Shown here: one piece after another, positions 2,346-63,371 of the stretch | Layout: each line of letters starts with the position of its first letter | Position numbering within the stretch: the stretch's first letter is position 1 | Assembly (NCBI GenBank): GCA_965203055.1 | Contig: OZ241863.1 | Span: 1,056,001-1,120,000 of the forward strand | Length of the DNA: 64,000 bases | DNA from: Spirochaetia bacterium | Lineage (GTDB): Bacteria; Spirochaetota; Spirochaetia; SZUA-6; Bin103 | Direction: 5' to 3' | Notes under the pieces: generated by a model | Database searches by the model: none | What the model was told of the DNA's origin: nothing | Seen by the model: only the letters and a program-made list of their open reading frames with translations | Made by a program: the position numbers and the translations under genes

Positions 2346-2348
2346 GTT

Positions 2349-2876: not shown

Positions 2877-3375
2877 TTCTCGCTCCTTGAGCATCTTCCA
2901 AATCGATGCTTCCCCGCAGTTCATCTACGTCGTGCGGAACAATGTCGCGCCAGTCTTCAATAGCATCATCCGCTGTCGAAAGTTGCTCAACGACGAACGC
3001 TTCGATTTGTGAAAGTGCTACCCGATGATCGTCGCCTTCTGATTCTTGAGCTTCGGCAACAACACTAGCAACCCTGGAGACACTATTGTACAAAGACACT
3101 AAACGACGGAAAGCTGATCGTGCATGTGGTCTTATAATTTCTCGTGCTGCTGTCTGCGCTGACATCCGCCCAAAGACAAGTGAAGCCAATACCCCGGTTA
3201 TCCAGGGAAGTGCCTGAAGATACACACCTTCAACCTGGGTCAGTCGTCGTGTGGTCGCGGTATATACGAAGTACACCGCTCCTGCAATCGACATCACCAA
3301 CAGAAAAATCGACAATATCAACTGGTACGGATCTGGCAATTTCTTGCCTAAATTGACCTTGTTCTTTCTTCTCAT
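2869..3375 (-). CDS. Hypothetical membrane protein, two N-terminal TM helices plus a helical domain (168 aa), lower GC
   Basis: C-terminal part of ORF 2869..4245. ATG 3375 overlaps the helicase TGA (ATGA). Hydrophobic segments are LILSIFLLVMSIAGAVYFVY and YLQALPWITGVLASLVFG. Confidence 0.75.
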   Translation of the reverse strand: MRRKNKVNLGKKLPDPYQLILSIFLLVMSIAGAVYFVYTATTRRLTQVEGVYLQALPWITGVLASLVFGRMSAQTAAREIIRPHARSAFRRLVSLYNSVSRVASVVAEAQESEGDDHRVALSQIEAFVVEQLSTADDAIEDWRDIVPHDVDELRGSIDLEDAQGARNG

Positions 3376-6300
3376 AGAAGATTGCGCCCTTCCTCGGTGG
3401 TCTCCGCGGCTTCCAGCAAGGACGCGGCGGAGATAGTATAGCTCTCCGAGCTGCGGCTGCGGGCTAGCAGTTTGGCGAACGGGTTGCGCACCCGCAAGAG
3501 CTGCGGCGCGGGGGTGGCGCAGTTGAACACTACGTAGAGCCAATAGCGATCTTCCAGATGGGCCGCCTGCTTCCACTCGTTGGGCTCTACCTCGATGGCG
3601 CCGCGGCCGGACCGACCCTTGACCTCGATGTTGCGCACCGCGCCGCCGCGCTGCGTGGCCAGCAGGTCGAAGCCGGGCCAGTCGGGCAGTCCGGCCACGC
3701 GCGCCAGCGGCGGCTTGGAGACGTCCTGCACCTCGGCGCCGCGCTCGCGCTCCCACGCGACCGCGATGCGCACCGCGAGTTCTTCGATGGTCGCGTCGTA
3801 GCGCTCGCGGTCGGCGGAGTCCACCGCGGGCACGACCAGGGCATGCGCGAGGAAGCGCACGGCGCCGGGAACGACCCGCTCGGGGCCGGCGTCGAGCTGG
3901 TCCAGGGCGCGGTTGCGGTCCGCGCTCAGCGCGCGCTGCTCCTGCCGGATTTCGGCCAATTCGCCCGCGGCCGCGGCTTCGCCGGCGCCGTTCGCGGCGA
4001 GCTGGACGCGGCGGGCGGCCAGCGCCGCGGCGCGCAGGTCGAAGCCGGCGCCGGCGCGGCGCCGGCGGTCGGGCAGTTCGGCGCGCAACGCGGCGCGGCG
4101 TTCTTCGGCCAGCGGCGCCACTACCTGGTGCTCGGCGTAGCGCGCGGCCGCGGCGCGCAGGTCGAGCCCGCGTCCGGCCAGCGGCACGGCGCCCGGGGCG
4201 ACCGCGGGAGCGCCGCGCAGCAGCAGGAGCTGCTCGCCGTCGCACTCCACCGGCACCCCGTCCTCGCCCTGGCGCAGCGCTACCAGCCGGCGTTCCAGCG
4301 TGCGGCGTTCGCCGCGCGCGTTCGGGGCCGGCGCAAACAGCCCGGCGGCGTCTCGATCGGCCGGCTCATCGGGTTCTCGCTCCACCGAGATCTTCGCCAG
4401 GTGGAGCAGGTAGGGGGCAGGTGCGCGCGGATCGCTGAACACGGCGCCGCGCAGGGCGTCGCCGGCGAAGGCGCCGGTGACCTGCGCGGCCAGCGCGTCG
4501 AATACCGGCTCGCCGGGGTGCAGCCAGATGCAGGGAGTGTCGTCCTCGGGGCGGCGCGTGCGCAGGCGTGCGCGCGCCGCGTCGGGGTAGCCTTCGAGCG
4601 CCGGCAGCAGGCCGTCGAGCGCGCCGGGTCGGCCCGGCGCCAGTGAGAAGCAGCCCTCCGGGTCGCCGCGGATCTCCAGATCGAGCAGCGGCGCGCTCTT
4701 CTCGATGAAGCGGCGCACGTAGCCGGGGAGGAGTTGCAGGTAATCCTCGCGCGCGAGCTCGCTACGCAGCGCGTCCAGGTGCCCGGCGACGTCACCGGGC
4801 GGACCGTAGACCGCCCGCTCGCGCGCATCGACCGCGCGTACCCGTGCGCCGGTCGTCAGGGTCTCCACACGTTCCCGGACGTGCTGCGCGCCGGCCTCGG
4901 TCAACGCCGCGCCGAGGTACTCGCGTAGCGAGGCGTTCTCGAACAGCCGCCCGATCACGTCGAACACCTTGTCCGAGCGCAACTCGGTGCGAATCGCTTC
5001 GAGTTTCTCCAGCAACACCTGCAGCACGCGGCCCTCGCGGGTGGCGCCGGCCACGAGGTTGACGATGCGCACGTCATGCCGCTGGCCGTAGCGGTGGATG
5101 CGCCCCATGCGCTGTTCCAGGCGCGCCGGATTCCAGGGGATGTCGTAGTTCGCCATCAGCCGGCAGAACTGCAGGTTGATGCCCTCGCCGGCGGCGTCGG
5201 TGGCGACCAGGTAGCGGGCGCCGTCCGCGCGGCGGAAGTGTTCGACTTGCGACTCCCGCTCCTGCCACCCCAGGCCGCCGTGAATCCATGCCACCTGATC
5301 GGAGAAGCCCAGTCCCTCCAGGCGGCGCACCAGATATTCCAGCGTGTCGCGATGTTCGGTGAAGAGCAGCCACTTCTCGCCGGCGTAGCGCGCGTCTTCG
5401 AGCACTTCACGCAACTTCTCGAACTTCGATTCTTCACCCGCCGCGCACAGTGCGCGCGCCCGGTCGCGCAGGTCCTTGAGGAGCTCGATCTCCCGCTGCA
5501 GCTCGGCGTCCGTGACCGCCGCCAGCGCGCCGAGCACCGCGTCTTCGTAGTCCTCGTTGCGTTCACCCGCGGCATCGTCGCGCGCGTCCTCGTCCGCCCC
5601 GTGGGTGTCGTAGAAGTCGTCTCGACAGCGCCGGTCGAGATCGCTCTGGCGGCGGCGCAGGTCGGCGGCGCGCAGCTTGCCGGACCGCAGGTCGGCCGCG
5701 GTCTGCTCCAACTTCACGATGCGCCGCTCGAACGAACGCAGCAGCGCCCAGGTGGAACTGGCCAGCCGCCGCTGAAACACGCTCAGCGCGAGCTGCACCG
5801 CGGGGCGGTTGTCCAGGCTGCGGCCGTAGACCCGGCGCAGGTAATCGGTGGTCGCGTCGTACAGCGCCTGTTCGCCGGTCGGCCCGCCGGTCAGGTCGTA
5901 ACTGAAGGTATCGCAGGCGCGCGTGCGATAGAGCGGTCGCCCGTCCAGGCTGACCATCTCCTCCTTGGTGCGGCGGATGAAGTGGCGGGCGCGCGCGGCC
6001 GGCGGACAGCGCTTGAGCGCGGCGCCGGTGGCGAATGCCTGCGGATCGAGCAGCCGCCACAGGTGGTGGTAGGGTTCGTCTCGCCCCATGTGCGGCGTGG
6101 CGGTGAGCAGCAGGAGATGATGCGCCGCCCATGGCAGGCCGGCGAAGCGGCCGCCGGGCGGGGCGCCGCCGCCGGCCAGCGCCTCCGCCAGCGCATAGCG
6201 CTGCGTCCGGCGGATGCGGCCGCGGTCGTTGGTCACGCTCAGCTTGTGGGCTTCGTCGAACACCACGAGATCGTACCCCGCGGCGCACTCCCGCAGCGCC

Positions 6301-6971
6301 GCAAACGCGGTTGCGCCGCGCAGGGTGTCCACCGACACGATGGCGAGATCGCCGGCAGGCGCGGCGAACGGGTTGCCGGCCCGCAGCTCCTGGCCGGTGA
6401 CGATGCGGAAGCGGAGGCGGAACAGGGTGCGCAATTCGCGCTCCCAGTTGCCCACCAGCCCGGCCGGCGGCACGATCAGGACCCGCCGGAGGCGGGCGCG
6501 AGAGAGCATTTCGCGCACGTACAGGCCGGTCATGATGGTCTTGCCGGCGCCGGCGTCGTCGGCGAGCAGGAAGCGCAACGGCTCCTGCGGCAACATCCGG
6601 TCGTACACGGCGATGCGCTGATGCGGCAGCGGGTCGATGCGCGCGGTTTCGCTGGCGAAGGCCGGGTTGAACTGGTGGCCGTGGGCGAGGCGCAACGCCT
6701 CGGCGACCGCCGACACGGCGGCGGGGTTGCCGGCGAAGTCGAGGGCCGGCGCCGCCGCCGGAGCCGCGCCCGGCGGCCCGCGGCGCGCGTCCTGCTCGGC
6801 CAGCGCCTCCTCCAGCTCCCGCAGCCGCTGCAGCGCCAACCGCTGCGGCTGCGACTGGCCCGTTTCCCAACGGTGCACCGTCAGCAGAGAAACGCCGACC
6901 CGCGCGGCGAAGCCGGCCTGCGTCAGTTCCATGCGCCGGCGCGTACGCCGCACGCGCCGGGCGTCCGTCAT
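3372..6971 (-). CDS. XRE-HTH + SNF2-family helicase + DUF3883 (PD-(D/E)xK-like) fusion protein
   Basis: HTH LTQAGFAARVGVSLLTVHRWETG; Walker A LADDAGAGKT; DEAH; TATP; EQRMGRIHRYGQ; C-terminal GFDLL...IEVKGR. ATG 6971 preferred because it fits a leaderless promoter; TTG 6980 is the alternative. Confidence 0.9.
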   Translation of the reverse strand: MTDARRVRRTRRRMELTQAGFAARVGVSLLTVHRWETGQSQPQRLALQRLRELEEALAEQDARRGPPGAAPAAAPALDFAGNPAAVSAVAEALRLAHGHQFNPAFASETARIDPLPHQRIAVYDRMLPQEPLRFLLADDAGAGKTIMTGLYVREMLSRARLRRVLIVPPAGLVGNWERELRTLFRLRFRIVTGQELRAGNPFAAPAGDLAIVSVDTLRGATAFAALRECAAGYDLVVFDEAHKLSVTNDRGRIRRTQRYALAEALAGGGAPPGGRFAGLPWAAHHLLLLTATPHMGRDEPYHHLWRLLDPQAFATGAALKRCPPAARARHFIRRTKEEMVSLDGRPLYRTRACDTFSYDLTGGPTGEQALYDATTDYLRRVYGRSLDNRPAVQLALSVFQRRLASSTWALLRSFERRIVKLEQTAADLRSGKLRAADLRRRQSDLDRRCRDDFYDTHGADEDARDDAAGERNEDYEDAVLGALAAVTDAELQREIELLKDLRDRARALCAAGEESKFEKLREVLEDARYAGEKWLLFTEHRDTLEYLVRRLEGLGFSDQVAWIHGGLGWQERESQVEHFRRADGARYLVATDAAGEGINLQFCRLMANYDIPWNPARLEQRMGRIHRYGQRHDVRIVNLVAGATREGRVLQVLLEKLEAIRTELRSDKVFDVIGRLFENASLREYLGAALTEAGAQHVRERVETLTTGARVRAVDARERAVYGPPGDVAGHLDALRSELAREDYLQLLPGYVRRFIEKSAPLLDLEIRGDPEGCFSLAPGRPGALDGLLPALEGYPDAARARLRTRRPEDDTPCIWLHPGEPVFDALAAQVTGAFAGDALRGAVFSDPRAPAPYLLHLAKISVEREPDEPADRDAAGLFAPAPNARGERRTLERRLVALRQGEDGVPVECDGEQLLLLRGAPAVAPGAVPLAGRGLDLRAAAARYAEHQVVAPLAEERRAALRAELPDRRRRAGAGFDLRAAALAARRVQLAANGAGEAAAAGELAEIRQEQRALSADRNRALDQLDAGPERVVPGAVRFLAHALVVPAVDSADRERYDATIEELAVRIAVAWERERGAEVQDVSKPPLARVAGLPDWPGFDLLATQRGGAVRNIEVKGRSGRGAIEVEPNEWKQAAHLEDRYWLYVVFNCATPAPQLLRVRNPFAKLLARSRSSESYTISAASLLEAAETTEEGRNLL

Positions 6972-6978
6972 CCCGTCC

Positions 6979-7025
6979 AATGTAGCGGCTGCTGCAGCTC
7001 CTGTCCAACGGCTATCAAACGATAA
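6979..7025 (-). promoter_or_regulatory. Putative sigma70 promoter for the helicase operon, with a nearby short inverted repeat
   Basis: TGGACA (7007-7002), 17 nt, TACATT (6984-6979), then ATG 7 nt later. TATC-AAAC-GATA inverted repeat at 7013-7024. Confidence 0.45.
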
Positions 7026-50872: not shown

Positions 50873-52237
50873 TCACTGGTCTACCGGCGCCTGACGATCC
50901 TCGCCGGGGCGCCCGAATCGGGCGCCGGCGTGGCGGTAGCGATGATGGGCGGCGCACAGCAGGCGGAGATTGTTCGGCTCGGCGGCGCCGCCGAGGGCAT
51001 ACGGCACGACGTGATCGATCTGCAGCAGGTGTTGGGAGCCGCAGCGGCGCCCGCTGGTGCGGTCCACGTAGCGGCAGCGGCCCCGGTCGCGCCGCCACAC
51101 CTCGCGCTTGACCGCCGCCGGGATGGCGCGGCCGGTCGCGCTGCCCGTCTTCGCTGCCGAAGTCCGGGTCCGCAGCGGCGCAGCCGGCTGCGCGCACGCC
51201 GCAGCCGGCCGGTCGAGGCGCAGTGTCTTCGTCTTCGGCGCCGAAGTGGTGTCGGTCGCCGGCTTCGTCGCCGAAGTGACCGAGCGGTCAGCGGCTTCGT
51301 CTCCCGGCTCCGCCGGCGCCTGAGCCGATACCTTCGCCGCCGAAGGAGCGGCGCTGTCCGCGCCGGCCTCCTGCTTCGCTACCGGGGCGGCGCCGCAAGC
51401 CGAGGCCGCCTGCGTCTTCGCCGCCGAAGTTTGCTCGGCGCCTTTGGCCGGCGCGGCGCGCCGCCCGCGCGGCGGCCGGGCCGGGTCGTGGCGGTCGAGT
51501 CCTTCCCGCACCAGCCGCCCCATGAGCTGCCCCAACGTCATGTGCGGGTCGACGTGGGCCAGGAGGCCCTTGAGCCGCTCCAGGCCACGCCGGCACTCAT
51601 CGTCGATCACCGCCTTGAGTTCCCAGCGCCCTCCGCCCAGGGGCCGCACCCGATCCGCCGACGCCGCCAGCTCCGGGTCCACCTCGGCCAGCATCTGCAT
51701 CACCTCCCGGCTGCTCTTGCCGGACGCCTGCTCCACCAGCTCCCGCCGCGCCTCCGAGTCCAGCACCGGCACCGGGTCCAGCACCGGCGCCGGCTTCCGC
51801 TCCGGCGCCGAGCCCTCCTGCGACTGAGCGGCAGCCCCGCACCCGGCCCCGCCCGGCGCGCTACGCGCCGCCCGCTCCTTCCTGCGCTCCTGCCGGTCGA
51901 AGGCATGCTGCAACTGCGCGGCCGCGTTCAGCGTCATCGAGCCATCCTGCAGGCGCTCGCGCACGCCGTCGACGTCAGCGCAGAGGCGCATCGCCTTGAT
52001 GCGCCGCCACGCTGCGGCGTCGCTGTAACCCAGTTCGCGCACCGCGTAATCGAACAGGCTCGAGAACCCGCGCCGCAGGTACAGGCGGCGCTTCTGAATC
52101 TCGCGCAGGTGGTCGATCACGACCACTTCGAGATGGTGTTCGATGCCGGACAGTACCTTGGTCCGCTCTAGCAGGCGGTCGTCTGAGAGGGCGGAAACGG
52201 TAGTGGTGACGGCCCCGTCGGAAGCATGATTGTTCAT
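50873..52237 (-). CDS. HNH endonuclease with helical N-domain and low-complexity repeat linker
   Basis: RGFSSLFDYAVRELGYS N-domain; C-terminal RRDRGRCRY...CGS...QIDHVVPYALGG...NLRLLCAAHH. Confidence 0.9.
   Translation of the reverse strand: MNNHASDGAVTTTVSALSDDRLLERTKVLSGIEHHLEVVVIDHLREIQKRRLYLRRGFSSLFDYAVRELGYSDAAAWRRIKAMRLCADVDGVRERLQDGSMTLNAAAQLQHAFDRQERRKERAARSAPGGAGCGAAAQSQEGSAPERKPAPVLDPVPVLDSEARRELVEQASGKSSREVMQMLAEVDPELAASADRVRPLGGGRWELKAVIDDECRRGLERLKGLLAHVDPHMTLGQLMGRLVREGLDRHDPARPPRGRRAAPAKGAEQTSAAKTQAASACGAAPVAKQEAGADSAAPSAAKVSAQAPAEPGDEAADRSVTSATKPATDTTSAPKTKTLRLDRPAAACAQPAAPLRTRTSAAKTGSATGRAIPAAVKREVWRRDRGRCRYVDRTSGRRCGSQHLLQIDHVVPYALGGAAEPNNLRLLCAAHHRYRHAGARFGRPGEDRQAPVDQ
51149..51430. 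repeat. Five dispersed palindromic 14-15 bp repeats CTTCG-N4-CGAAG inside the HNH gene
   Basis: Copies start at 51149, 51233, 51263, 51332 and 51416; each encodes T/P-S-A-x-K. Confidence 0.8.
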
Positions 52238-52399: not shown

Positions 52400-52554
52400 A
52401 GGGGCCGGCTTCGGTGCCGGCGCGGGCGGCGTTGAGGGCAAGCAGGCGGGCGAGCACTTCGTCGTGGGACTCCGGCGCGGTCCATGGCGGCGTGCAGCGC
52501 GGCGCGGTACTCGTAGTACGCCCTTCCGGCGGCTTCGAGGGCGGGATCGGTCAC
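52400..52554 (-). pseudogene. Collapsed remnant of a type IIG/MmeI-like restriction-methyltransferase C-terminus
   Basis: DPALEAAGRAYYEYRAAL | HAAMDRA | (frameshift) HDEVLARLLALNAARA: three motifs I recall as well separated in such enzymes. Confidence 0.6.
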
Positions 52555-52617
52555 AAATTGGAAGTGCGCCGCGCCGCGCGCGCACCGCCGGCAGCCCGCA
52601 TGCTATGCTGGCAGGAG

Positions 52618-52743
52618 ATGCTCGAAACGTTGTTCCCGCGGCGCGCGGCGAACGAATTTCACGGCGCTCCGCTCGCCGGCTGGGCGCTGGCGGCCATGAC
52701 GTTGATCATGCTGGTGTTGGCGCTACGCGAGCGGAAGGTCTGA
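52618..52743 (+). pseudogene. 41-aa hydrophobic mini-ORF, probable internally deleted membrane-protein gene
   Basis: AGGAG RBS; MLETLFPRRAANEFHGAPLAGWALAAMTLIMLVLALRERKV; stop 2 nt before the DUF499 start. Confidence 0.45.
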
Positions 52744-52745
52744 GC

Positions 52746-55700
52746 ATGGCGACCCCGACGATCTTCGAGACTTGCCGGCCGCGCGCCGACGTCCTCGCCG
52801 GCAGCGTCGCCGAGGCGGACTTCGCCGCCGACCTGGCCGAGGTGGTCACCGGCCGGGGCAGCGCGCAGTACCGCGATCCGGTCCGGTTCTTCGCCAACAC
52901 CTATCCGACGCGCGGGCTCAAGGCCCTGCTCGCCAACGTCTGCCGGCGGCTGAGCGGCGCCGGCGGCGAGGCGGCGGCGATCTTCCGCCTCGACACCTCC
53001 TACGGCGGCGGCAAGACCCACGCGCTGATCGCCCTGGCGCACGCGGTGCGCGGGCGGGCGGCCGGCGCCGACCTGAGCGAGTTCGTCGCGCCGGCGCTGC
53101 TGCCGGCGGGCGCGGTGCGGGTGGCGGCGTTCGACGGCGAGAACGCCGATCCCGCAAACGGGCGCGCGCTGGGCGACGGGGTGCTGGCGCACACGCCGTG
53201 GGGCGAGCTCGCGTACGCGCTGGCCGGCCGGCAGGGCTACGAGCGGGTGAGCCGCAGCGACCGGGAGGGGGCGGCTCCCGGCGCGGAGACGCTGCGCGAG
53301 CTGTTCGGCGGCGCGCCGGCCCTGATCCTGCTCGACGAGCTGTCGGTATACCTGCGCAAGGTGCAGCGTCTGCCCGGCGCCGGCGACCAGTTGACCGCGT
53401 TTCTCACCTCGCTGTTCAAGGCGGTCGAAGGAGCGCCCAACGCGGCCCTGGTCTACACCCTGGCGATCGGCAAGGATGGGCGCGCGACCGACGCCTACGG
53501 CGCGGAGAACCGCTTCATCGGCGACCGCATGGCGGAGGCGGAGAGCGTGTCGGCGCGCAAGGCCACGCTGCTCGATCCCACGGCCGAGGACGAGACAGTC
53601 CAAGTGCTGCGGCGGCGCCTGTTCGAGAGGATCGACGAAGCGGGGGCGGAGGCGGCGATCGACGCCTACCGCGAGCAGTGGGCGCTGCACGGCGGCGCGC
53701 TGCCCGCGGACGCCGCCCGCCCGGAGACCGCGCAGACCTTCGCCGCGAGCTATCCGCTGCATCCCGAGGTGCTGGCCACCCTCACCGGCAAGACCGCCAC
53801 GCTGAGCAACTTCCAGCGCGTGCGCGGCATGCTGCGGCTGCTGGCGCGCACCATCGCGCAGCTCTGGCAGGCGCGGCCCTCGGACGCCGCCGCCATCCAC
53901 CTGCACCACGTCGACCTGGGTCATGAGCCGATCCGCCAGGAGATCGTCATCCGCCTGGGGCAGTCAGCCTACCTGCCGGCGATCGCCAACGACATCGCCG
54001 CCGGCGGGGGCGAGGGCGGCACAGCGCTGGCGCAGCAGATCGACGCCGCCCGGCACGGCGGCCTGCCGCCCTACGGGGCCTACGTCGCGCGCACCATCTT
54101 CATGCACACGCTGGCGTTCAACGATCCTCTCAAGGGGCTGTCGCCGGAGCGGCTGCGCTACTCCCTGCTCGGCCCGGCTACCGACGTCGGCTTCATCGAC
54201 GAGGCGCGCCGCCGGTTCGTGGCCGATTCGGCCTATCTCGACGACCGTCCGGGCGCGCCGCTGCGGTTCCTGGCGGAGGCCAATCTGAGCCTGATCATCC
54301 GCCGCGAAGAACAGCACGTGGACGCCGGCGATGCCCGCGCGGATCTGAACGACCGCATCAAGCGGGTGTTTTCGGGGGACGCGTTCGAGCTGGTGCCGTT
54401 TCCGGGCGGGCCGTTCGACGTGCCGGACGACGTTGGCGACGGGCGCCCGCGGCTGATCGTGCCGGCCTATGACGGGGTGGCGGTCGGCGACAGCGTCGGC
54501 GCGGCGCCGGAGCTGATCGCGCGCATCTACGCCCGCAAGGGGGCGGAGGGTTCGGCGCTGCGCATGCTGCGCAACCACCTGGTGTTCGCGGTGGCGGACG
54601 CGGAGCGCAAGGCGGAGATGCAGCGCGCCGCGGTCCGGCGGCTGGCCCTGCAGGCGCTGTTGCGCCCGGAACGGCTGGCGGAGCTGGCCGAGCATCAGCA
54701 GGCCACGGTGCGCGAGCAGGCGGCGCGGTCGGAGCAGGAGTTGGCGATCGCCATCCAGCAGTGCTACCGCCACCTGTTCTATCCGTCGCGCAACCGCGTG
54801 GGCGCCGCCGACGTCGATCTGGCGCACACCGCGATCGAGCTGCCGGCGGCGTCGGACCAGCCGGGCGCCGGCCAGCAGCAGGTGGTTCGCGCGTTGCGCG
54901 AATTGGCCAAGCTGCGACTGGCCGAGGATGAACCCGACTCGCCGGCCTACGTGCGCGACCGCACGCCGCTCAAGCGGCCAGATCACGACCCTGGCGCTGC
55001 GCGACGAGTTCCGCCGCGATCCGGCGCTGCCGATCCTGAGCGGCGACGACATCTTTCTGCGCGGCATTCGGCGCGGGGTGGAGCGCGGCGACTACGTCTA
55101 CCGGCGCGGCGAGCTGCTCTACGGCCCGGACGACCCGCCGGCCGACCTGCTGATCGACGAACGGGCGCTGGTGCTGACCGTGGCCTACGCCCGCACCAAG
55201 GGCATCTGGCCCCGCCCGGCGCAGGGGGCCGCGGCCGGCGATGGCCAGGTGGGCGGGGCCGGGCCGACCGAAGGGTCCCGCAGCAACGGCGGCGGACCGG
55301 ATGAGGTGCGTCAGCCGCCGGACGGGGGATTGCCGCCGGAGAGCCCCGGACCGGGCGAGTTCACCGCCGAGGGCGTGCTGCGGGAAGCGCTGACGCGGCT
55401 GTGGGAGCAGGCGCGCGCCGGGGGCGCGGCGCGGGTCTCGAAGTTGACGATCCGCATGTTCGAGGCCGGCGACGGCTTCCGGCTGCTCGGCGCGGTGGGC
55501 GCGGTGACCGGCGCGGACAAGGAGGTGACCATGGCCGGCGGCTACGAGACCCGCGACGGCGGTTCCTTCATATTGGAGTTCAACGGTCCGGTGGCGGACG
55601 CGCAGCCGGTGCGCGAATTCCTCGAACCGCAGTTGCGGGACTGCGCCTCGCGCACGCTGGAGGTGTCGTTTCGGATCACCTTCGCCGCCGGCCTGCCGCT

Positions 55701-55797
55701 GGCGGGCGACGCCGCGGAGCGGCTCGCCGAACGGCTGGCGCGGTTCGCCGGCGGGGCGGCGTACGTGGCGGCGACCGCCGCGGCGCAGGCCTCGTGA
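52746..55797 (+). pseudogene. DUF499-family AAA+ ATPase, one frameshift near 54975 (true lesion or sequencing error)
   Basis: CRPRADVL, DFAADL, FFANTYPT, LDTSYGGGKTH, HTPWGELA, LILLDEL, SYPLHP, FQRVRGMLR. Frame changes at CTC AAG C GGC CAG ATC ACG (TPLK/GQITT) and continues in ORF 54928..55797. Confidence 0.85.
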
Positions 55798-56285
55798 TGG
55801 CGCGCGCGGAGCGGGAGATTCGCATCGAGCCGGCCGCGTCGGCGCCGCGCTACGAGCTGCGGGTGCGCCGGCATCGGCCCGGCGCCGCCGAATACGCGGT
55901 CTGGCAGTTGCCGGCGCCGGCCACGCCGCAGGTGAAGCGGGCGCAGCGCGTCGCCCGCCTGCAAGGCGCCAACCTCGACCTGATCGAACACCGCGTGCTG
56001 CGCCGGCTGGCGCGAGCCGGCGTCCGCCTCGGCCCGCGCGCCGGCGCCGCGGACCGCGGCTATCCGCTGCCGGAGGAGGCGGCGCTGCTGCTGGGGCTGC
56101 TGTTCCGCGCCTTGGCGCCGATGCGCAACCGCGATAACATGCGCATGGTGACCGCGGGCATCGAGGCGATGGAGCCTGAGGAAGCCGCGTACTGGGCGGG
56201 CATGGCGATCCACCGCCGCCGCCCCCGCCGCGTGCTGAAGGCCCTCCGCATCCTCCTCACCGATTGCAATGCCGGACGTACCTGA
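55797..56285 (+). CDS. Small DUF499-associated protein (positional analogue of DUF3780), 162 aa
   Basis: TGATG coupling to DUF499; LGLLFRALAPMR...GIEAMEPEEAAYW...RVLKALRILL. Confidence 0.75.
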   Translation: MARAEREIRIEPAASAPRYELRVRRHRPGAAEYAVWQLPAPATPQVKRAQRVARLQGANLDLIEHRVLRRLARAGVRLGPRAGAADRGYPLPEEAALLLGLLFRALAPMRNRDNMRMVTAGIEAMEPEEAAYWAGMAIHRRRPRRVLKALRILLTDCNAGRT

Positions 56286-56742
56286 AATTCGCCTTCGTCT
56301 GTCGATCTGGCGACCTGCATCGCTCGATCGTACGTACCTGCATGCCCAGGATGGCGGGTCGGGATCGGACCGGTATTCGCCGCTCGACGAGACAGGCCTC
56401 CTGGAGCAGATATACTCATGGGACTCCGGCTGGTATGACATCTCGGGATCTTCCGAGTCGGACGTGACCGATCTGATCAAAAGCCGCTTGCTGCGCCCGT
56501 TCGGCCAGCACGAGCCTCCGGCCAAACGCGGCGTGCGCCGGTTCCGCCGCGCGTTGTCCGATCTGCTTGAGGATTCCAAGGTACGCGCCGGGACTTTCTG
56601 GTCGGACTGCCCGGACACGGTGCCCACGGGTAGCGGGGACCTGAATCTGCGCGCCAACGTCACTCTTGGCGTGCTCCGACACTTTCTGTGGGTCGCCGGC
56701 GTCTACGCCGACGTCCCGGATGCCTCGGTCCTGCTCCAATGA
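56269..56742 (+). CDS. Hypothetical protein (157 aa), first gene of lower-GC cassette
   Basis: Overlaps both neighbours; normal globular composition; no family recognised. Confidence 0.7.
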   Translation: MPDVPEIRLRLSIWRPASLDRTYLHAQDGGSGSDRYSPLDETGLLEQIYSWDSGWYDISGSSESDVTDLIKSRLLRPFGQHEPPAKRGVRRFRRALSDLLEDSKVRAGTFWSDCPDTVPTGSGDLNLRANVTLGVLRHFLWVAGVYADVPDASVLLQ

Positions 56743-58811
56743 ATGAGTACGTACTGCGATCCGTTACCGGTGCCGAGAAGGCTATGGCTGACCTCTTTGC
56801 CGCTTGCGCCATGTCCGGCGGCGAACACCTGCGGCTCGAAGTTCGTGAAGATAAGTGCTTTCGACCCGACGTCTGGGTGTCGGTCGGCACCGTATCCTTG
56901 CATCCCGAATTGCCGGCTGCATCACAGGATGAGGAGGACGGGAACACCTTGCTGGAGCGGGCACTCCGATACGGCTTCTTCAACTGGGAGCTTCCAAAAG
57001 AGGACTGGCTGAAGAGTAAGCTGACAGAGGCGTTGGCGATTGAGGAACCGGCCAGAGAAAGTGCCCGGACCGTGAAGGACATTGACAGAGTAACCAGAGG
57101 CTTGGCCCACGCAGCCATCCGCTGCGGCGTGGCGCACCCCGCCTTCGACGCGATGACCCTTTCGAAGATGCCGTTTCGCAGGAACGTCGGGATAGTAATG
57201 GATACGACGGCCGTGCTGCAGGGGGGACTCGACTTTGCCGCACGCCATTTGACACCAGCCGCCCGGCTGCGCGTTCCGGCGATCGTGCAGATGGAGATAC
57301 TGAATTTCGTCGACCGCTACTTCAGCCAGCGACGCAGAGGGAAGCCTATCTCCACCATGTTGGTGGACCACATGTTGAGTCAAGCCGGACAACGCGCCCT
57401 CATCAGGCTGGGACTGGCTCATCGGGTGGAACGGCCGCGGCTCGGGGCCGAACCGCTGCGCGGCATCGTTCAGCCCGATTCCGACGCCGAAGACAAGAGC
57501 CTGGGCCTGCAGGTGGTACAGAGGAGCTTCGCCGACCGTCTCATTCTGGAGACCGCGGTGCAACGACGCAATGACGCCGCCCCCGACCATCCCGTCACAT
57601 TGATGACAGCCGATCAGGGCCTTACGCGGATGGCGCTGGCTGAAGGGATAGAACCACTCTTCTTCGATGCGAACGCGGCGTCGGCGCTACTCGGCTCCAC
57701 CCTGAGCGGCGTCACGTTCAAGCCATTCATGACCGACGGTCTTCGTACCTACCCCGTTTCCTTGTGCGCCATTCTTTGGGAACTGGCCGTGACGTTCGGC
57801 GCCGCCCGTCTGATCGGCATCGATTCCGATGACTCATTCGAAGCTGTTGCGATCGGCGAGGGATGTTCATGGCAGCCCTACCACTCTCGTGACGATCTTC
57901 TTTGGACGAGATCGGTACCGAAGTCTGCTGCCGCGAAGCCTTCGCCGAAGATCAAGGCTGCCCCTGACTCTACTGAGTCGGACTCGGCCGGTGCAGCCAC
58001 CTTGTCGACCACACCGAGTCCGCGGAGCCGTACCTTGTCTGGCGCCTACGGCTTCAGCCCCGGTTCCATGATCGATCTCATGGTGGCTCTAAATGGTGCC
58101 GCCCTTTCTGACGCAGCGGGAATGGAGGTGGCGCACGTCAATAAAAGGAACTCGTACGAACAGTATCGGAGATTCCTGTACGCAGGAGGATTCGCCGTCA
58201 AGAGCGGTGCGGAAATGGAGAAGACGGACCGCCTCTCCTCCTTGATCGGCAGTATGATCGCCGGTGCATTCGATGAGATGCGGGTGCTGCTTTCCCTCGT
58301 GCCATCTTTCAAGCGCTTTCTGACCAACGTGGAGGTAGGGAGTCCTTTGACGCAAGGCGATTCGAAAATTAACGCGACCTCCTTTCGTTCCTATTGTGCC
58401 TTGGCAGAGATGTGTTGCGCGGGCGTGCGCTTCGTCGACGCGGGAATCTATCCCACACCGGAGAATCCGACGCCGGAGCATTTCTCACGTCCGGCCCTCG
58501 CGGCTTACGATACGGTACGGCGGGGAGAAGATTACGCCCTGACGGGCGCTTGGCTGGATGAGATGACCAAGCGCTTTGGCATACACCCGGTGCGCGCGCG
58601 GCAGCGCTTGGCGGAGGCTCATCAGAGTGGACATATCCGCCGTTACGTGGAAGGATCGACTCCGGAAACCAGATACGGGAACAGGAATCTCCATGTACTC
58701 AGCTTCGACGGCGGGGTTCCCAAAGTGCGCAATGTCAATCTCTATCACGGAGACTTCCTGATGCCAGGCCGAGCCGCCGTCAGTATCAGGCTGTCGAAGG
58801 GGGAGCGATGA
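56739..58811 (+). CDS. Large (690 aa) PIN-domain protein with uncharacterised flanking domains
   Basis: PIN-like acidic motifs GIVMDTTAVL, VPAIVQMEI, SFADRLILE, LMTADQGLTRMALAEGI; ATGA overlaps at both ends. Confidence 0.72.
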   Translation: MNEYVLRSVTGAEKAMADLFAACAMSGGEHLRLEVREDKCFRPDVWVSVGTVSLHPELPAASQDEEDGNTLLERALRYGFFNWELPKEDWLKSKLTEALAIEEPARESARTVKDIDRVTRGLAHAAIRCGVAHPAFDAMTLSKMPFRRNVGIVMDTTAVLQGGLDFAARHLTPAARLRVPAIVQMEILNFVDRYFSQRRRGKPISTMLVDHMLSQAGQRALIRLGLAHRVERPRLGAEPLRGIVQPDSDAEDKSLGLQVVQRSFADRLILETAVQRRNDAAPDHPVTLMTADQGLTRMALAEGIEPLFFDANAASALLGSTLSGVTFKPFMTDGLRTYPVSLCAILWELAVTFGAARLIGIDSDDSFEAVAIGEGCSWQPYHSRDDLLWTRSVPKSAAAKPSPKIKAAPDSTESDSAGAATLSTTPSPRSRTLSGAYGFSPGSMIDLMVALNGAALSDAAGMEVAHVNKRNSYEQYRRFLYAGGFAVKSGAEMEKTDRLSSLIGSMIAGAFDEMRVLLSLVPSFKRFLTNVEVGSPLTQGDSKINATSFRSYCALAEMCCAGVRFVDAGIYPTPENPTPEHFSRPALAAYDTVRRGEDYALTGAWLDEMTKRFGIHPVRARQRLAEAHQSGHIRRYVEGSTPETRYGNRNLHVLSFDGGVPKVRNVNLYHGDFLMPGRAAVSIRLSKGER

Positions 58812-59953
58812 GCCTTCGTGAACGGATGAAGCGCACGGATTCGGGCCGACAGCTGACTCTGTATCGAGAGTATGGCGTGATCGGTAATCCCTTTCCCTCA
58901 GCAGGGCAACCGTCGGGCCATCCGAGATTGGAAGATGCGATCGACGACAAGGTAGTAGATCGTTTCCGGCAGTTCGAGGACGGAAGCCATGCCTCGCAGG
59001 TGATCACGATCGAGGGAACGCAGGGCGTCGGCAAGACGAACTTGCTCAACTACTATGAATATCAGTTCCGCGATTACTATCGGGATAGCAACGCACACTA
59101 TATCATCAGATACTACCCGGATCCGGAGCCGTCCTTCGATTCGGTGCTGAGAAAGATTTTCCAGAGCTTCGACCGTGGCCACTTCGAGAACATCGGCAGG
59201 AAGCTCGCACAGGGCAAGGAAGCCGTGAGAAACAGTGCCAAGGAACGTGCTCTACACCATGACGTGAGGATCGTTCTCAACAGTTTGGAGGGAGCGGGCG
59301 ATAGTAACGATAACGAACGGATAGCCGAGTGCGCTCAACTGGCTCTGGATTGGTTCCTGGGCTTGCGCGTCCTGAAGCGGCACCGCGAAGTACTCGGCGT
59401 GAGCTTCAGGCTGGATACGGTCGAATCGCGTACGCAGGCTCTGCGTGACATCATCTATGTCAGCGAACGGTTGGATATCCTGCAGGGTGTTTTCCTGTTG
59501 CTGGACGAGCTCGAGAAACAGGACTACTCGCTCAGCAAGACCCCGGTGCTCCGCTTCCTCCTCTCCATACGGGCGTTGATCGACGCCTTGCCGGAGCGGC
59601 TGTTCCTGATGCTGGCGATGACTCCTCAGGCCCGCACGCGCTACTTCGCGATGCTTCCCGCATTGGCAGGCCGTCTGCAGGACAGAATACCGTTGTCGCC
59701 TATCAAAGACCGGACCGAGGCCCGCCGACTGTTCGATTTCTACTTGAGACGAGGGCGCGAGGCGGCGAGATCGAACCCACGCGTGCAAGGCGAGGGGCAG
59801 GGAGCCGTCGACCTGTTGGGAGCCGACGATCTGAATGAAATGTTCCGCATATGTAGGGAGGAGTCTGAGCAACGAGGAATCGAAGGCGTCACGCCTCGCG
59901 ACTTCCTGCATCGCCTGCACGGAGAGTGGGAGAGCCGGGTAACGGCCCGGTAA
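58808..59953 (+). CDS. AAA+/P-loop ATPase (NPF N-motif)
   Basis: YGVIGNPFP; Walker A GTQGVGKT; Walker B FLLLDELE; ALAGRL; TPRDFL. Confidence 0.85.
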   Translation: MSLRERMKRTDSGRQLTLYREYGVIGNPFPSAGQPSGHPRLEDAIDDKVVDRFRQFEDGSHASQVITIEGTQGVGKTNLLNYYEYQFRDYYRDSNAHYIIRYYPDPEPSFDSVLRKIFQSFDRGHFENIGRKLAQGKEAVRNSAKERALHHDVRIVLNSLEGAGDSNDNERIAECAQLALDWFLGLRVLKRHREVLGVSFRLDTVESRTQALRDIIYVSERLDILQGVFLLLDELEKQDYSLSKTPVLRFLLSIRALIDALPERLFLMLAMTPQARTRYFAMLPALAGRLQDRIPLSPIKDRTEARRLFDFYLRRGREAARSNPRVQGEGQGAVDLLGADDLNEMFRICREESEQRGIEGVTPRDFLHRLHGEWESRVTAR

Positions 59954-59961
59954 CGTACCGG

Positions 59962-60921
59962 ATGGCTGAACCGACCGTTGCCGCGGCGCCGCCGGCCGAG
60001 CCCAAGTTTCCCGGCTGCCGTCCGGTGCGCATTACGCGCCGAGTGATAGCCGAATGCGAGGTCCGCCTGGAGTACTGGGATGCCGCCACCGAGATCGCGA
60101 TGGTGTGCGAACAGAACAGCTACTACCACGAGTCCCCCATCCATCTCCTCACCACGCTGACCGGGAATATCGCCGCGGCGCGGAGCTTGCCAATTGGGGC
60201 GGCGGGGCGCACCGACCTGCGGTTGTGCAATGCCCGCGGCGAGTGGCAGCGCATCATGCAGGCCGACCAGATCCTGTTCCTGCGCCCTGCGCGGCCGCGG
60301 GGCGACGCAATCGAGGTGGGCGTGGACAAGCTGCCGGACGTGGTGCTGGAGGTGGACAATACTACCGACGTGCGCTGCGGCAAGCTGGGGTTGTACGACT
60401 CCTGGGGCTTTCCCGAGGTATGGGTCGAGGTGCCGGACCAGCCGGCGCCGAGCCGGCCGGCGGGGCTGCGCCCCGGCCTGACGATCTACGTGCGGGAGGG
60501 CGGCCGCCTGCGCCCCGCGGCGGTGAGCCGCGCGTTTCACGGCTGGACGGCGGCGGAGATACACCGCGGGTTGAACGAGTCCGAGATGTCCGAGGAGACG
60601 GCGGCGGCGCTGGACCGGGTCGGGCGCTTGCTGGGCGCCGCCGCGGGCACGCAGCCGTATGACGATCCGTTCCAGCGCCTGTTGCTCAGGCGCAGCCGCG
60701 CCGAGGGCTATGCGGAAGGCTATGCGGAAGGCTATGCCGAGGGCTATGCGGAAGGGCTCCTGGAGGAACGCGTCGATACCATAGAGGCTATGGTGCGCGC
60801 CGGCATGCCGTGGCCGGCATCGGCGACCGGAATAGACGAGGCCGGGCTGCGCGCCATCAAGCAGGGGCTCGCCTGCTTGGTCCGCCGCTCCCGAACCGAC
60901 CGAGGCGCCGCCGACGGCTGA
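59962..60921 (+). CDS. Uma2-family endonuclease-like protein (paralogue of 15689-16663)
   Basis: FPGCRPV, RLEYWD, MQADQILF, PDVVLEVD, LYDSWGFPEVW; (AEGY)4 repeat. Confidence 0.8.
   Translation: MAEPTVAAAPPAEPKFPGCRPVRITRRVIAECEVRLEYWDAATEIAMVCEQNSYYHESPIHLLTTLTGNIAAARSLPIGAAGRTDLRLCNARGEWQRIMQADQILFLRPARPRGDAIEVGVDKLPDVVLEVDNTTDVRCGKLGLYDSWGFPEVWVEVPDQPAPSRPAGLRPGLTIYVREGGRLRPAAVSRAFHGWTAAEIHRGLNESEMSEETAAALDRVGRLLGAAAGTQPYDDPFQRLLLRRSRAEGYAEGYAEGYAEGYAEGLLEERVDTIEAMVRAGMPWPASATGIDEAGLRAIKQGLACLVRRSRTDRGAADG
60700..60756. repeat. 12-bp tandem repeat encoding (AEGY)4-AEG
   Basis: GCCGAGGGCTAT / GCGGAAGGCTAT units. Confidence 0.85.
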
Positions 60922-61057
60922 AGGCACAGAATAACTCAAGCGGCGCCGCCCCTGCGCCGGCCCCGCTCCCCCGGAGCCGCCGACGGCTGCGTCCCTCGGC
61001 CAGCCGGACCCGCTGCCCGATGAAGATGTCTTTACGTCTGGCATTTTTCCGGGAATA

Positions 61058-62215
61058 ATGCCAGGCATGTTTGCACGGCTGCTGCGGCGCCCCGGATCGT
61101 CGTGCTTTCTGTTCGGCCCGCGCGGTACCGGGAAGTCGACGTGGATTGCGCGCCACTTCGCGGGCGCCCGGCTCTACGATCTGCTCAACACGACCGAGGC
61201 GCTGCGCCTGGCGCGCGAGCCGGCCACGCTGTTTCGGGAAGTGGAGGGACTGTCCGCCGGCGATTGGGTGGTGATCGATGAGGTCCAGCGCGTCCCGGAG
61301 CTGCTCAACGAGGTCCACCGCCTGATCGAGACGCGCCGGCTCCGGTTCGTCCTGTCGGGATCGAGCGCCCGCAAGCTGCGCCGCGGCGGCGCCAACCTGC
61401 TCGCCGGGCGGGCGGTGGTCCATCATCTGTTTCCGCTGGTGTCGGCGGAACGATCCTTTCAGGTCGACTTCGACGATGCGCTCCGCCACGGCGCCCTGCC
61501 GCTTGCGGTCACCGGCGACGATCCGGCCGCCTACCTGAGCGCCTATGCCGAGACCTATCTGCAGGAAGAGATCCGCGCCGAGGCGTTGACGCGGAGCGTC
61601 GGCAGCTTCAACCGCTTCCTGGAGATCGCGGCCCGGCAGAACGGACAGGTGACCAACGTCTCCTCCATCTCCCGCGATGCCGCGGTGAGCCGGTCCACGG
61701 TGCAAAACTACTTCGAGATCCTCATCGACACCCTGATCGGAAACTGGCTGCCCGCCTGGAAGCTCAAGCGCGCGACCAAGCAGGTCGCGCACCCCAAGTT
61801 CTACCTGTTCGATTGCGGGGTGGCGCGCGCGCTGTCCGGCCGGATCGCCTATCCGCCGTCCCCGGAGGAGCGCGGCGCTCTGCTGGAGACGGCGCTGCTG
61901 GGCGAGATCCGCGCGTACCTGGCGTACAACGGGCTGCGGTATCCGCTCCACTACTGGCGGACCCACGACGGAGTGGAGGTCGACCTGCTGTGCGAGAGCG
62001 GCGCCGGCTTCATCGCCGTGGAGATGAAAGCGTCGGCGCGGTGGGACGCGCGCTACAACCGCGGCCTCAACCGGCTCCGCGACGAGCTCGGCGCCGGCCG
62101 GGTCACCTGCTACGGCGTCTACGAAGGGGAGCGGCCGGCGACGTGGGGCAGCGTCCGGGTGCTGCCGGCGCCGGAGTTTCTGAAGCGACTCTGGAACGGG
62201 GAAGTACTGCGCTGA
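61058..62215 (+). CDS. AAA_14 ATPase with DUF4143 domain (COG1373)
   Basis: GPRGTGKST, IDEVQR, LSGSSARKL, PKFYLFDCGV, YWRT..G.EVDLL..EMK; ATG 61067 is an alternative start. Confidence 0.9.
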   Translation: MPGMFARLLRRPGSSCFLFGPRGTGKSTWIARHFAGARLYDLLNTTEALRLAREPATLFREVEGLSAGDWVVIDEVQRVPELLNEVHRLIETRRLRFVLSGSSARKLRRGGANLLAGRAVVHHLFPLVSAERSFQVDFDDALRHGALPLAVTGDDPAAYLSAYAETYLQEEIRAEALTRSVGSFNRFLEIAARQNGQVTNVSSISRDAAVSRSTVQNYFEILIDTLIGNWLPAWKLKRATKQVAHPKFYLFDCGVARALSGRIAYPPSPEERGALLETALLGEIRAYLAYNGLRYPLHYWRTHDGVEVDLLCESGAGFIAVEMKASARWDARYNRGLNRLRDELGAGRVTCYGVYEGERPATWGSVRVLPAPEFLKRLWNGEVLR

Positions 62216-62396
62216 GCCCGGTCACGGCCGCGGCCGCCGGTGCTGGCCGCGCCTCTCACTCCCGTCGGCTGCGCTGCTCGAACCAGATGCGCCGGCAGCG
62301 AGGCAAGCAAGCGGCGCCTGGTGGCCGCAGGTGGCCGCACCTGCTGAGGGCCGGTCCTTGTGTGCCGCTCGCATGTGGTATGATCGGCACCTGACC

Positions 62397-63371
62397 ATGC
62401 ACGATGCCGGCTACAAGCGGTTGTTCGCGCAGCCGCACACGGTTCAGGACCTGCTGCGCGGCTTCGCCGCCCGTGACTGGAGCGAGGCGCTCGACTTCTC
62501 GACCCTCACCCCGGTGCCGGCCAGCTTCGTCAGCCACCGCCTGCGCCAGCGCCACGGCGATCTGGTGTGGCGGGTCCGGTTCCACGATGAATGGCTGTAC
62601 CTCCTGGTGCTGCTGGAGTTCCAGTCCACCGTCGAGCCGGCCATGGCAACGCGGATGCTGACCTACACCGGCATGCTGTACGAGAAGCTGATCGACGACG
62701 GCGTGCTGCGCGAACATGGCAAGCTGCCGCCGGTGCTGCCGATCGTGATCTACAACGGCAGCCAGCCGTGGACGGCGGCCGAGGACGTGGCGGAGCTGAT
62801 CGCGTTCGGCGGGGAGGCGCTAGCGCGGTATCAGCCGTCGTTGCGCTACTATCTGCTTGACCAGGGGCGGCTGGGAGCGGACGATCTGCCGGGTCGCAAC
62901 CTGGTGTCGGCGCTGATCGCGCTGGAGACCAATCGCGCGGATGAGCGGGTGCCGGAGTTGCTGGCGGCGCTGTTCGAGCGGCTGCGGGAGTTGGAGACCC
63001 CAGAGTTGACGCAAGTGTACCGGGAATGGGTGAATCAGGTGCTGGTGCCGCGCAAGATGAAGGGCACGGTGCTGGAATCGTTGCCGGGATCGGAGGAGGT
63101 AGGGCCGATGTTGCAGGAGTTGGTAGCCGGATGGGTCGCGGAAGGCCGCGAGCAGGGTATCGAGCAGGGTATCGAGCAGGGCCGCGGCGAAGAACGAAGG
63201 CTGTTGTGCCGGCAGGCGGCACGGAAGTTCACGCCGGAAACGGCGCCGCGGTTGTCCGTCCTGCTGGAGCGCCTGACCGATCCGGAGAGCCTGTTGCAGG
63301 TCGGCGACTGGATCATCGAGTGCAAGACCGAGAGGGATCTGCTGGCCCGCGTGCAGGACGCGATTCCATAA
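62397..63371 (+). CDS. Rpn-family (Transposase_31, PD-(D/E)xK) nuclease
   Basis: MHDAGYKRLF, HGDLVWRV, LLEFQS, LPIVIYNG..PW, EGREQGIEQGIEQG. Confidence 0.9.
   Translation: MHDAGYKRLFAQPHTVQDLLRGFAARDWSEALDFSTLTPVPASFVSHRLRQRHGDLVWRVRFHDEWLYLLVLLEFQSTVEPAMATRMLTYTGMLYEKLIDDGVLREHGKLPPVLPIVIYNGSQPWTAAEDVAELIAFGGEALARYQPSLRYYLLDQGRLGADDLPGRNLVSALIALETNRADERVPELLAALFERLRELETPELTQVYREWVNQVLVPRKMKGTVLESLPGSEEVGPMLQELVAGWVAEGREQGIEQGIEQGRGEERRLLCRQAARKFTPETAPRLSVLLERLTDPESLLQVGDWIIECKTERDLLARVQDAIP

Follow-up and report, generated by a model that had tools for sequence, protein, structure and literature searches.

Analysis of a 64,000-nucleotide stretch from the genome of a Spirochaetia bacterium (GCA_965203055.1, contig OZ241863.1, positions 1,056,001 to 1,120,000), referred to here as the window, revealed a bona fide, self-contained, widely scattered, and unannotated three-gene operon. 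Its genes encode a small protein of 157 amino acids (aa) (p157), a putative PIN nuclease of 690 aa (PIN690), and a predicted AAA+ ATPase of 381 aa (AAA381), and they are collectively called the trio. The window's own genome is designated G000 (window at 1056001-1120000), and the other loci compared carry L-numbers. In our judgment, the chances are slightly better than even that the trio is an autonomous, horizontally mobile conflict module, most likely directed against phages or other mobile elements, which sits as a passenger in an Hma insertion hotspot with a frameshifted DUF499 gene. The sequence features described below make the trio a credible defense candidate, and the case for defense is circumstantial.

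The trio forms the end of a chain of five genes (52746-59953), all on the plus strand, which was defined from the list of open reading frames (ORFs) and by direct reading of the junctions. Proteins were compared with Pfam, PADLOC-DB v2.0.0 (2023), NCBIfam 20.0 (June 2026), and PHROGs. The first gene (52746..55797), which is present in two frames (52746-55304 and 54928-55797), encodes a DUF499/HmaC AAA+ ATPase (PADLOC HmaC, E = 6.7e-99; Pfam DUF499, E = 2e-31). The second gene (55797..56285) encodes DUF7680, the 162-aa small partner of this DUF499 subtype (Pfam PF24728, E = 7.2e-42). They are followed by the genes for the small Trp-rich protein p157 (56269..56742), identified by its homolog profile, for the multidomain PIN protein PIN690 (56739..58811), identified by PIN_4 and invariant acidic residues, and for the BrxD-like (ORC/Cdc6-clade) AAA+ ATPase AAA381 (58808..59953), identified by Pfam AAA_22 and by NPFP and Walker A/B motifs. 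The DUF499 and DUF7680 genes meet in TGATG at 55795-55799, and the DUF7680 and p157 genes overlap by 17 nt (56269-56285). The two junctions within the trio are both ATGA, at 56739-56742 (p157 to PIN690) and 58808-58811 (PIN690 to AAA381). The order and all four junctions agree with the initial annotation, which had been made from the sequence and had described five genes chained by overlaps. Its remark that the last three are less GC-rich was borne out by the guanine-plus-cytosine (GC) content in 500-nt windows, which is 0.546-0.628 over 56500-59499 versus 0.716-0.762 over 52500-55999. The trio's GC deficit relative to its surroundings is 6-14 points, and the overall GC content of G000 is 0.6875.

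The same three genes recur as a unit in other genomes. One genome from each of 185,579 species was scanned by pattern, and trio loci were detected in 60 species-level genomes from Cyanobacteriota (many of them Nostoc), Pseudomonadota (including Paraburkholderia, Acetobacter, Sphingomonas, and Mesorhizobium), Acidobacteriota, Nitrospinota, Thermodesulfobacteriota, Spirochaetota, and one Thermoplasmata archaeon. An AAA381 homolog lies downstream of the PIN gene in 59 of the 60 loci and is directly adjacent in 58; it is about 1.8 kb away in L052 and absent in L053. A profile search placed a p157 homolog directly upstream of the PIN gene in 55/60 loci. The five misses are accounted for by contig ends (L049, L056, and L060) and by N-terminally truncated PIN genes (L007 and L055). 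The junction between the PIN and ATPase genes is overlapping in 49/50 loci, and of 40 p157-to-PIN gaps, 19 are -4 nt and none exceeds 12 nt. Across 41 complete trios, the pairwise identities of the three proteins covary (Spearman, 0.66-0.73; Pearson, 0.98-0.99, the latter inflated by the Nostoc cluster), and p157 diverges fastest, with a mean pairwise identity of 0.39 versus 0.47 for PIN690 and 0.53 for AAA381. The ratios of nonsynonymous to synonymous substitution (dN/dS) of the trio genes are 0.32-0.55 against the nearest relative, L001 (from a Spirochaetia metagenome-assembled genome), and 0.17-0.39 against L002 and L003; therefore, all three appear to be expressed proteins under purifying selection. 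The survey of homolog neighborhoods thus agrees with the initial annotation, which had treated the trio as a cassette with a nuclease and an ATPase, and a predicted PIN-type protein does stand beside a P-loop ATPase.

AAA381 was recognized by Pfam AAA_22 (E = 1.4e-7), and an exhaustive profile search with it returned 596 representatives at E <= 0.001, 84 of them at E <= 1e-30. The NPF, Walker A, and Walker B motifs that the initial annotation had pointed out are conserved: the N-terminal NPFP, Walker A (GVGKT; G73, G75, K76, and T77), and Walker B (LLLDELE; D233 and E234) are invariant in 21 aligned homologs. AAA381 itself falls below Pfam PF10923 (BrxC_BrxD). This family was matched by 45 of 56 distant full-length relatives (best E = 4.3e-20), and AAA381 aligns end to end with the PF10923-matching sister family (hhalign probability 100%, E = 3.9e-57, 354 columns). 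By these profile comparisons, AAA381 appears to belong to the BrxD/ORC-Cdc6 group of AAA+ ATPases. One account assigns BrxD to the ORC/Cdc6 clade of AAA+ ATPases and gives its role as unknown (PMC12839542). AAA381 resembles BrxD of Type-2 BREX, as described there, in being a stand-alone ORC/Cdc6-type AAA+ ATPase of approximately 380-430 aa, but BrxD accompanies the BrxHI helicase in a six-gene Pgl/BREX locus, whereas AAA381 accompanies PIN690 and p157 (PMC12839542). Assignment of the trio locus to BREX type 2 was rejected because BrxHI and PglW/X/Y/Z are lacking and because AAA381 adjoins PIN690 and, downstream, unrelated genes. In the trios of five diverse loci, the ATPases gave weak PADLOC matches to DpdH, PifA, and mad8 (best E = 4.7e-5), and the DpdH and PifA matches of the window's AAA381 fall on the P-loop. 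Two apparent ATPase fusions look like gene-call artifacts.

The start codon of PIN690 (ATG at 56739) agrees with the N termini of all homologs. Among 8000 candidates scored, 376 relatives were found at E <= 0.001; nearly all of the matches listed are 550-730 aa long, and they are named only "hypothetical protein." Alignment revealed a conserved N-terminal domain (56739-57155, approximately residues 1-139), the PIN domain with its acidic residues (57156-57743), a further conserved stretch that passes into a variable low-complexity linker (approximately residues 393-436), and a conserved C-terminal domain with an EGSTPE motif (58047-58808, residues 437-690), all on the plus strand. Residues D155, T156, E186, D266, E271, T290, and D292 are invariant in 78 sequences, and the catalytic PIN acidic residues D155, E186, D266, and D292 are kept. 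PIN_4 was matched by 38 of 52 family members (best E = 1.3e-7), and the PIN-like acidic motifs already noted in the 690-aa protein are thereby substantiated. Searches of the N-terminal, middle, and C-terminal parts against Pfam at E <= 1 gave only scattered chance-level matches, PDB sequence and profile searches with the whole trio proteins, the PIN domain alone, and the C-terminal domain alone gave no usable match, and the ESM Atlas returned only the unnamed clusters of the PIN690 family itself. Twelve short forms of the C-terminal domain look like split genes. The same domain also stands alone as a 313-aa ORF (L070:7854-8795; 29% identity, BLASTP E = 5e-32) on a viral-labelled IMG/VR contig, with no AAA381 or p157 homolog beside it on that contig; this ORF may be a decoy or an inhibitor, or the domain may have an unrelated use there.

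The remaining protein, p157, had been listed as an unknown, and no match to it was found in Pfam, PADLOC, NCBIfam, or PHROGs. Sequences from several loci gave only scattered chance-level matches against Pfam at E <= 1, and neither the PDB sequence and profile searches nor the ESM Atlas gave a match. The aligned homologs have W14, W51, P84, R87, W141, and P150 as invariant residues. Similarity to PIN690 was not detected by hhalign, and a search for fused forms of p157 found none.

Analysis of the wider locus placed the trio among the parts of an Hma system. HmaB, a DUF1156 methylase (G000 1128158-1131115; PADLOC E = 3.5e-69), and HmaA, a PLDc_2 and SNF2 helicase (G000 1131118-1134330; PADLOC PLD_Helicase, E = 2e-59) that is 98.4% identical to HmaA of L001, are on the same strand and start 12 kb past the trio, beyond the window edge. 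HmaC, its small partner, HmaB, and the PLD-SNF2 helicase lie on one strand within 26 kb, in the order frameshifted HmaC-DUF7680-trio, six more genes, HmaB-HmaA. Nine passenger genes, the trio included, stand between HmaC-DUF7680 and HmaB-HmaA; the six that follow the trio encode a 331-aa protein, an AAA_14/DUF4143 ATPase, two YhgA-like proteins, a 1327-aa HNH and double-PIN protein, and a 643-aa protein without a family. Since the methylase and the helicase are present 12 kb downstream, the trio sits in an Hma (Type-2 BREX-related) locus as a passenger and is not a component of Hma. Such a placement is ordinary for these loci. According to two sources, about two thirds of Hma loci carry embedded genes, many of them defending, and Hma is a hotspot for embedded systems (bioRxiv 10.1101/2024.01.29.577857; PMC11232893). 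BREX-related loci are likewise described as recruiting backup nucleases, PIN types included (PMC12839542).

With HmaC, a small partner, HmaB, and a PLD-SNF2 helicase, the host locus resembles the Type-2 DUF499-centered BREX-related (Hma) system (PMC12839542; PMC11232893); it differs in having DUF7680 rather than DUF3780 as the small partner, a frameshifted HmaC, and nine passengers inside. The initial annotation had taken DUF499 and its partner for half of a DUF499-DUF3780-DUF1156-helicase system. The DUF1156 methylase and the helicase were indeed found downstream, but the partner is DUF7680, and DUF3780 was not among its Pfam matches at E <= 0.01. DUF7680 lies directly downstream of a DUF499 gene in 5/5 genomes checked and thus seems to replace DUF3780 in this Type-2-like variant. 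The same annotation had hinted that DUF499 would need repair, and rightly so: relative to L001, in which the gene is intact (1018 aa), the window lacks 2 nt (GC) near 54973, and the gene is split into two frames. Contigs from two other metagenome runs contain the GC dinucleotide. The deletion may be real, or it may be an assembly error, because the contigs of the run that best holds this stretch break at 54955 and 54991, at the deletion site. Runs that contain the stretch come from sponge and marine metagenomes, with no RNA run among those listed.

Comparison of the window with L001 revealed that the trio and the DUF499 pair have different pasts. A single 7.4-kb blastn match (L001:3887-11254; 93% identity) covers all five genes on the plus strand, only 52615-59987 being common to the two loci and the flanks on either side being unrelated. 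Boundary repeats, an Rfam family, and a convincing promoter or terminator were looked for around this block, and none was found. In sliding windows, identity is 98-100% over DUF499 and DUF7680 and 76-96% over the trio, with the drop at approximately 56209-56290, the start of p157. Synonymous divergence (dS) from L001 is 0.019 for DUF499, 0.062 for DUF7680, and 0.13-0.29 for the trio genes. The identity break at p157 and the higher dS of the trio indicate that the trio has a history of its own, and the pattern suggests a mosaic block in which recombination swapped one part.

These data bear on the possibility that the trio is not autonomous but an accessory arm of the Hma/BREX-related system, i.e., a backup effector that needs DUF499-DUF7680 or the DUF1156 methylase. 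In the four closest copies (window, L001, L002, and L003) the trio abuts Hma parts in the same orientation, and AAA381 falls in the same broad ATPase clade as BrxC/BrxD. The junctions are of three types. The trio follows DUF7680 in the window and in L001 (order HmaB-HmaA-HmaC-DUF7680-trio), it follows the helicase in L003 (order HmaC-DUF7680-...-HmaB-HmaA-trio), and in L002, which has no DUF499 nearby, the trio ATPase overlaps the methylase (HmaB) start by ATGA. Outside this group, tblastn with the window's DUF499 and DUF7680 found neither gene in the other 56 loci. The Pfam and PADLOC scan of flanks used 133 crudely called ORFs and covered 18 of the 60 loci, with two more that had been chosen left out, and no Hma part was found within approximately 4.5 kb in the 16 of those 56 loci that were included. 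In two genomes the DUF499-DUF7680 pair is megabases away from the trio. The separate history of the trio and its intactness beside a frameshifted DUF499 likewise speak against dependence, and we regard an accessory role as distinctly unlikely. The initial annotation had described the trio as appended to the DUF499 pair, which is true of this locus, but the trio is not tied to DUF499.

The trio bears marks of horizontal transfer. Its GC content is below that of its flanks in 41/41 loci (mean difference, -0.063), which bears out the compositional part of the earlier proposal that it is an acquired module. Among 401 sampled genomes of the host phylum, the trio ATPase was found in one only, namely, the window's own, and the PIN tree (from which 16 near-identical Nostoc-type rows were left out) mixes phyla. 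In the flank scan, integrase, relaxase, T4 coupling protein, resolvase, or transposase genes occur within approximately 4.5 kb in 6/18 loci, and a credible known defense gene occurs within the same distance in 8/18 loci, a raw count from crude ORF calls without a background control. The defense neighbors are Hma (L002 and L003); a DISARM-type or IIG methylase, a dGTPase, and PDC-M28C (L009); ShosTA and a type II restriction-modification pair (L031); PD-T7-1 (L032); an SspA/DndA-like protein and PDC-M33A (L036); Tiamat TmtA and a TIR protein (L039); and a type I restriction endonuclease (L054). Among the 18 loci scanned, no helicase and no replication, partition, or integrase gene was consistently linked to the trio.

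This neighborhood also weighs on a role outside conflict. The trio might process RNA or DNA, for instance, or an ORC/Cdc6-like initiator and its nuclease partner might replicate or partition an integrated element. In the classical case, ATPases of the ORC/Cdc6 type bind DNA and act there as initiators or loaders, and the stand-alone C-terminal domain on the IMG/VR contig would fit such a role as well. We nevertheless consider it very improbable, the least probable of the alternatives treated here, given the sparse and patchy spread (60 of 185,579 species genomes and 1/401 in the host phylum), a trio GC content under that of the flanks wherever examined, the neighboring defense genes, and the lack of a consistent replication, partition, or integrase linkage.

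VapBC consists of a single-domain PIN toxin of approximately 130 aa and a small antitoxin with a DNA-binding domain. The trio shares with it a PIN active site with acidic residues and a small upstream gene that overlaps the PIN gene. It could thus be a toxin-antitoxin or addiction module that stabilizes mobile elements, with PIN690 as toxin, p157 as antitoxin, the ATPase as regulator, and no dedicated anti-phage role. The integrases, relaxases, T4 coupling protein, and transposases nearby in 6/18 loci and the fast evolution of p157 would agree with this. PIN690, however, is as large as five VapC proteins and includes two conserved domains in addition to PIN, no DNA-binding antitoxin domain is recognizable in p157, the strictly conserved third gene for an AAA+ ATPase is foreign to VapBC, and no trio was found on any PLSDB plasmid. 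The trio was accordingly rejected as a VapBC pair, and an addiction module in the wider sense is unlikely. A PIN_4-type domain working with a P-loop ATPase is also found in PhoH2, in which PIN_4 is fused to the PhoH ATPase. This assignment was rejected because the trio has a separate AAA+ ATPase, which is not PhoH, and because PIN690 differs in size and domain make-up.

If the trio is an autonomous conflict module, it might work as follows. A ribonuclease activity, its gating by the ATPase, the formation of a complex, and the substrate, trigger, and phenotype are what we infer in this scheme. The interpretation in the initial annotation is thus partly supported; abortive infection and co-expression with DUF499, which it had also put forward, are likewise conjecture. 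One translationally coupled message would yield the three proteins in fixed proportion, and they would then assemble. AAA381 would act as a nucleotide-dependent switch or sensor, and PIN690 would be the effector, whose metal-dependent PIN site would cut nucleic acid, RNA being the likeliest substrate. The N- and C-terminal domains of PIN690 and the fast-evolving p157 could recognize the target or trigger, or they could keep the nuclease silent until infection. More specifically, the trio may be an unnamed cross-phylum anti-phage system built on a 690-aa PIN nuclease with two domains of unassigned fold, the nuclease being controlled by a BrxD-type ORC/Cdc6 AAA+ switch together with a small subunit rich in Trp; we put this forward tentatively, at somewhat less than an even chance.

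Several observations weigh against a mobile defense module of this kind. PIN domains are also found in housekeeping RNA processing and in toxin-antitoxin pairs. The window's PIN690 is below threshold for PIN_4 (E = 0.0081; 16.9 bits versus a cutoff of 21.9), and the assignment of the PIN domain in this protein rests on its relatives and on motif conservation. No trio copy was found on 72,556 plasmids (PLSDB) or in 50,697 phage genomes. Ten of the 18 scanned loci are without a credible known defense neighbor, three of them having ambiguous matches only and seven having none. The window, L001, L002, and L003 form one well-supported Spirochaetota clade in the PIN tree; the Hma-linked copies therefore represent one lineage with rearrangements and are not independent of each other. 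The roles given above to p157 and to the end domains of PIN690 are guesses.

The initial annotation could not match the trio to a named system, and neither PADLOC-DB v2.0.0, NCBIfam, nor PHROGs contains a model for any of its proteins, the weak ATPase matches aside. The trio might still have been named elsewhere, for example, in newer DefenseFinder or PADLOC models or in a subscription-journal paper, as many systems have been named since the 2023 release and the literature search covered few subscription journals and no bioRxiv supplements. This is quite improbable. The trios of five diverse loci had no PADLOC match beyond the weak DpdH, PifA, and mad8 matches on the ATPase, none of the three proteins is covered by a model in the NCBIfam release of June 2026, and the source names seen among the matches listed were all "hypothetical protein." The literature searched by full text, outside which subscription journals and closed supplements lie, gave no description of the trio and no mention of DUF7680.

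Comparison with described systems revealed relatives in kind but no identity. HEC-01 to HEC-03 are Hma-embedded candidates that combine an ATPase with a TOPRIM, NERD, or PIN nuclease (Payne et al., bioRxiv 10.1101/2024.01.29.577857). As described there, the trio is like them an ATPase and nuclease cassette that is lodged in Hma in the same orientation, and the embedding logic applies to it; with HEC-03 it further shares the pairing of an ATPase with a PIN protein. On the same description, the HEC ATPases are of the ABC type, whereas that of the trio is a BrxD-like AAA+ ATPase of the ORC/Cdc6 clade; HEC-03B is a small VapC-like PIN protein, whereas PIN690 has 690 aa with two unannotated domains; and the trio has an obligatory third small gene. 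An assignment to HEC-03 was rejected, as no HEC or PDC model of PADLOC-DB v2.0.0 matches the trios of five loci and the architecture differs. Menshen (NsnA/NsnB/NsnC) resembles the trio in having three genes with an ATPase and a PIN-fold effector protein, but its sensor is of the DUF262/ParB kind, its ATPase is an ABC ATPase, and its PIN protein (NsnC) is catalytically inactive, whereas PIN690 keeps the catalytic residues (PMC12065111). Menshen was rejected, since no PADLOC Nsn model matched and the PIN acidic residues are present. DS-3 and DS-5 of DefensePredictor were rejected as well, being one- and two-gene PIN systems of other make-up (PMC13092281). The trio resembles PARIS and Septu as a cassette of the ATPase-plus-nuclease kind but is not a member of either.

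Downstream of the trio, same-strand passengers (59926..63371; Pfam and PADLOC) fill the space toward HmaB/HmaA, and the array continues past the window. They begin with the 331-aa protein (59926-60921), a multicopy protein without a Pfam family, and continue with the AAA_14/DUF4143 ATPase (61058-62215; Pfam; PADLOC PDC-S01, E = 9.9e-61) and a YhgA-like PD-(D/E)XK protein (62331-63371; Pfam and PADLOC), all on the plus strand. The 331-aa protein has five paralogs in G000 (48-60% identity), and more than 25 other sites in G000 have its C-terminal tail as well, a segment of approximately 58 aa that comes after tandem EGYA repeats; the YhgA-like neighbors may carry a similar tail. Just past the window and directly before HmaB lies a low-GC (0.48-0.53) insert (G000 1122111-1128113 = L072:2812-8814). 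Its 1327-aa protein has an N-terminal HNH domain (PADLOC PDC-M68A-like), HTH_upst_double_PIN, and PIN-TPR-GreABC and is followed by the 643-aa protein; the insert probably represents a further embedded candidate system.

At the left border of the block shared with L001, a 454-aa protein with a C-terminal HNH domain and no PADLOC match is encoded on the minus strand (window 50873-52237), divergent from DUF499. In L001, the genes after the trio are on the opposite strand (L001:11371-15298) and encode a GmrSD_N/DUF262 protein (PADLOC PDC-M55C) and an ABC ATPase (PDC-M55A), which make up another candidate system of the same island. A second Hma-like locus occupies positions 1-6980 of the window on the minus strand, with an SNF2-type helicase ORF (3372-6980; 1202 aa) and a DUF1156 methylase gene that runs off the window (DUF1156 domain at 2148-2312); a DUF499-like gene lies just outside the left window edge (G000 1052030-1053184). 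Altogether, with 13 DUF1156 matches (of which approximately 11 are full-length methylases) and 5 DUF499-like genes, G000 (4.56 Mb) is unusually rich in Hma/BREX-related loci.

As many candidates of this sort already exist, the case presented here, though solid, is not startling. If defense is indeed its function, the trio would add a new architecture to the ATPase-plus-nuclease class, in which an AAA+ ATPase of the ORC/Cdc6 type takes the place of the ABC ATPase, the PIN effector is giant, and the small subunit is obligatory, and it would suggest a role for the uncharacterized BrxD branch of the BREX ATPases. Should the more specific reading be true, in which a BrxD-type switch controls the PIN nuclease, it would provide the first functional handle on BrxD-like ATPases, namely, the licensing of a nuclease, and it would account for the repeated capture of the trio by Hma/BREX-related loci as a second line of defense. 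Three regions without a family, namely, p157 and both end domains of PIN690, become accessible to experiment through the trio, and its carriers include cultivable bacteria, Paraburkholderia, Nostoc, Acetobacter, and Sphingomonas among them; L032, L020, and L039 are the loci of Paraburkholderia fungorum, Nostoc punctiforme, and Acetobacter orleanensis, respectively. It is one more case in which the passengers of Hma loci have been a productive search ground.

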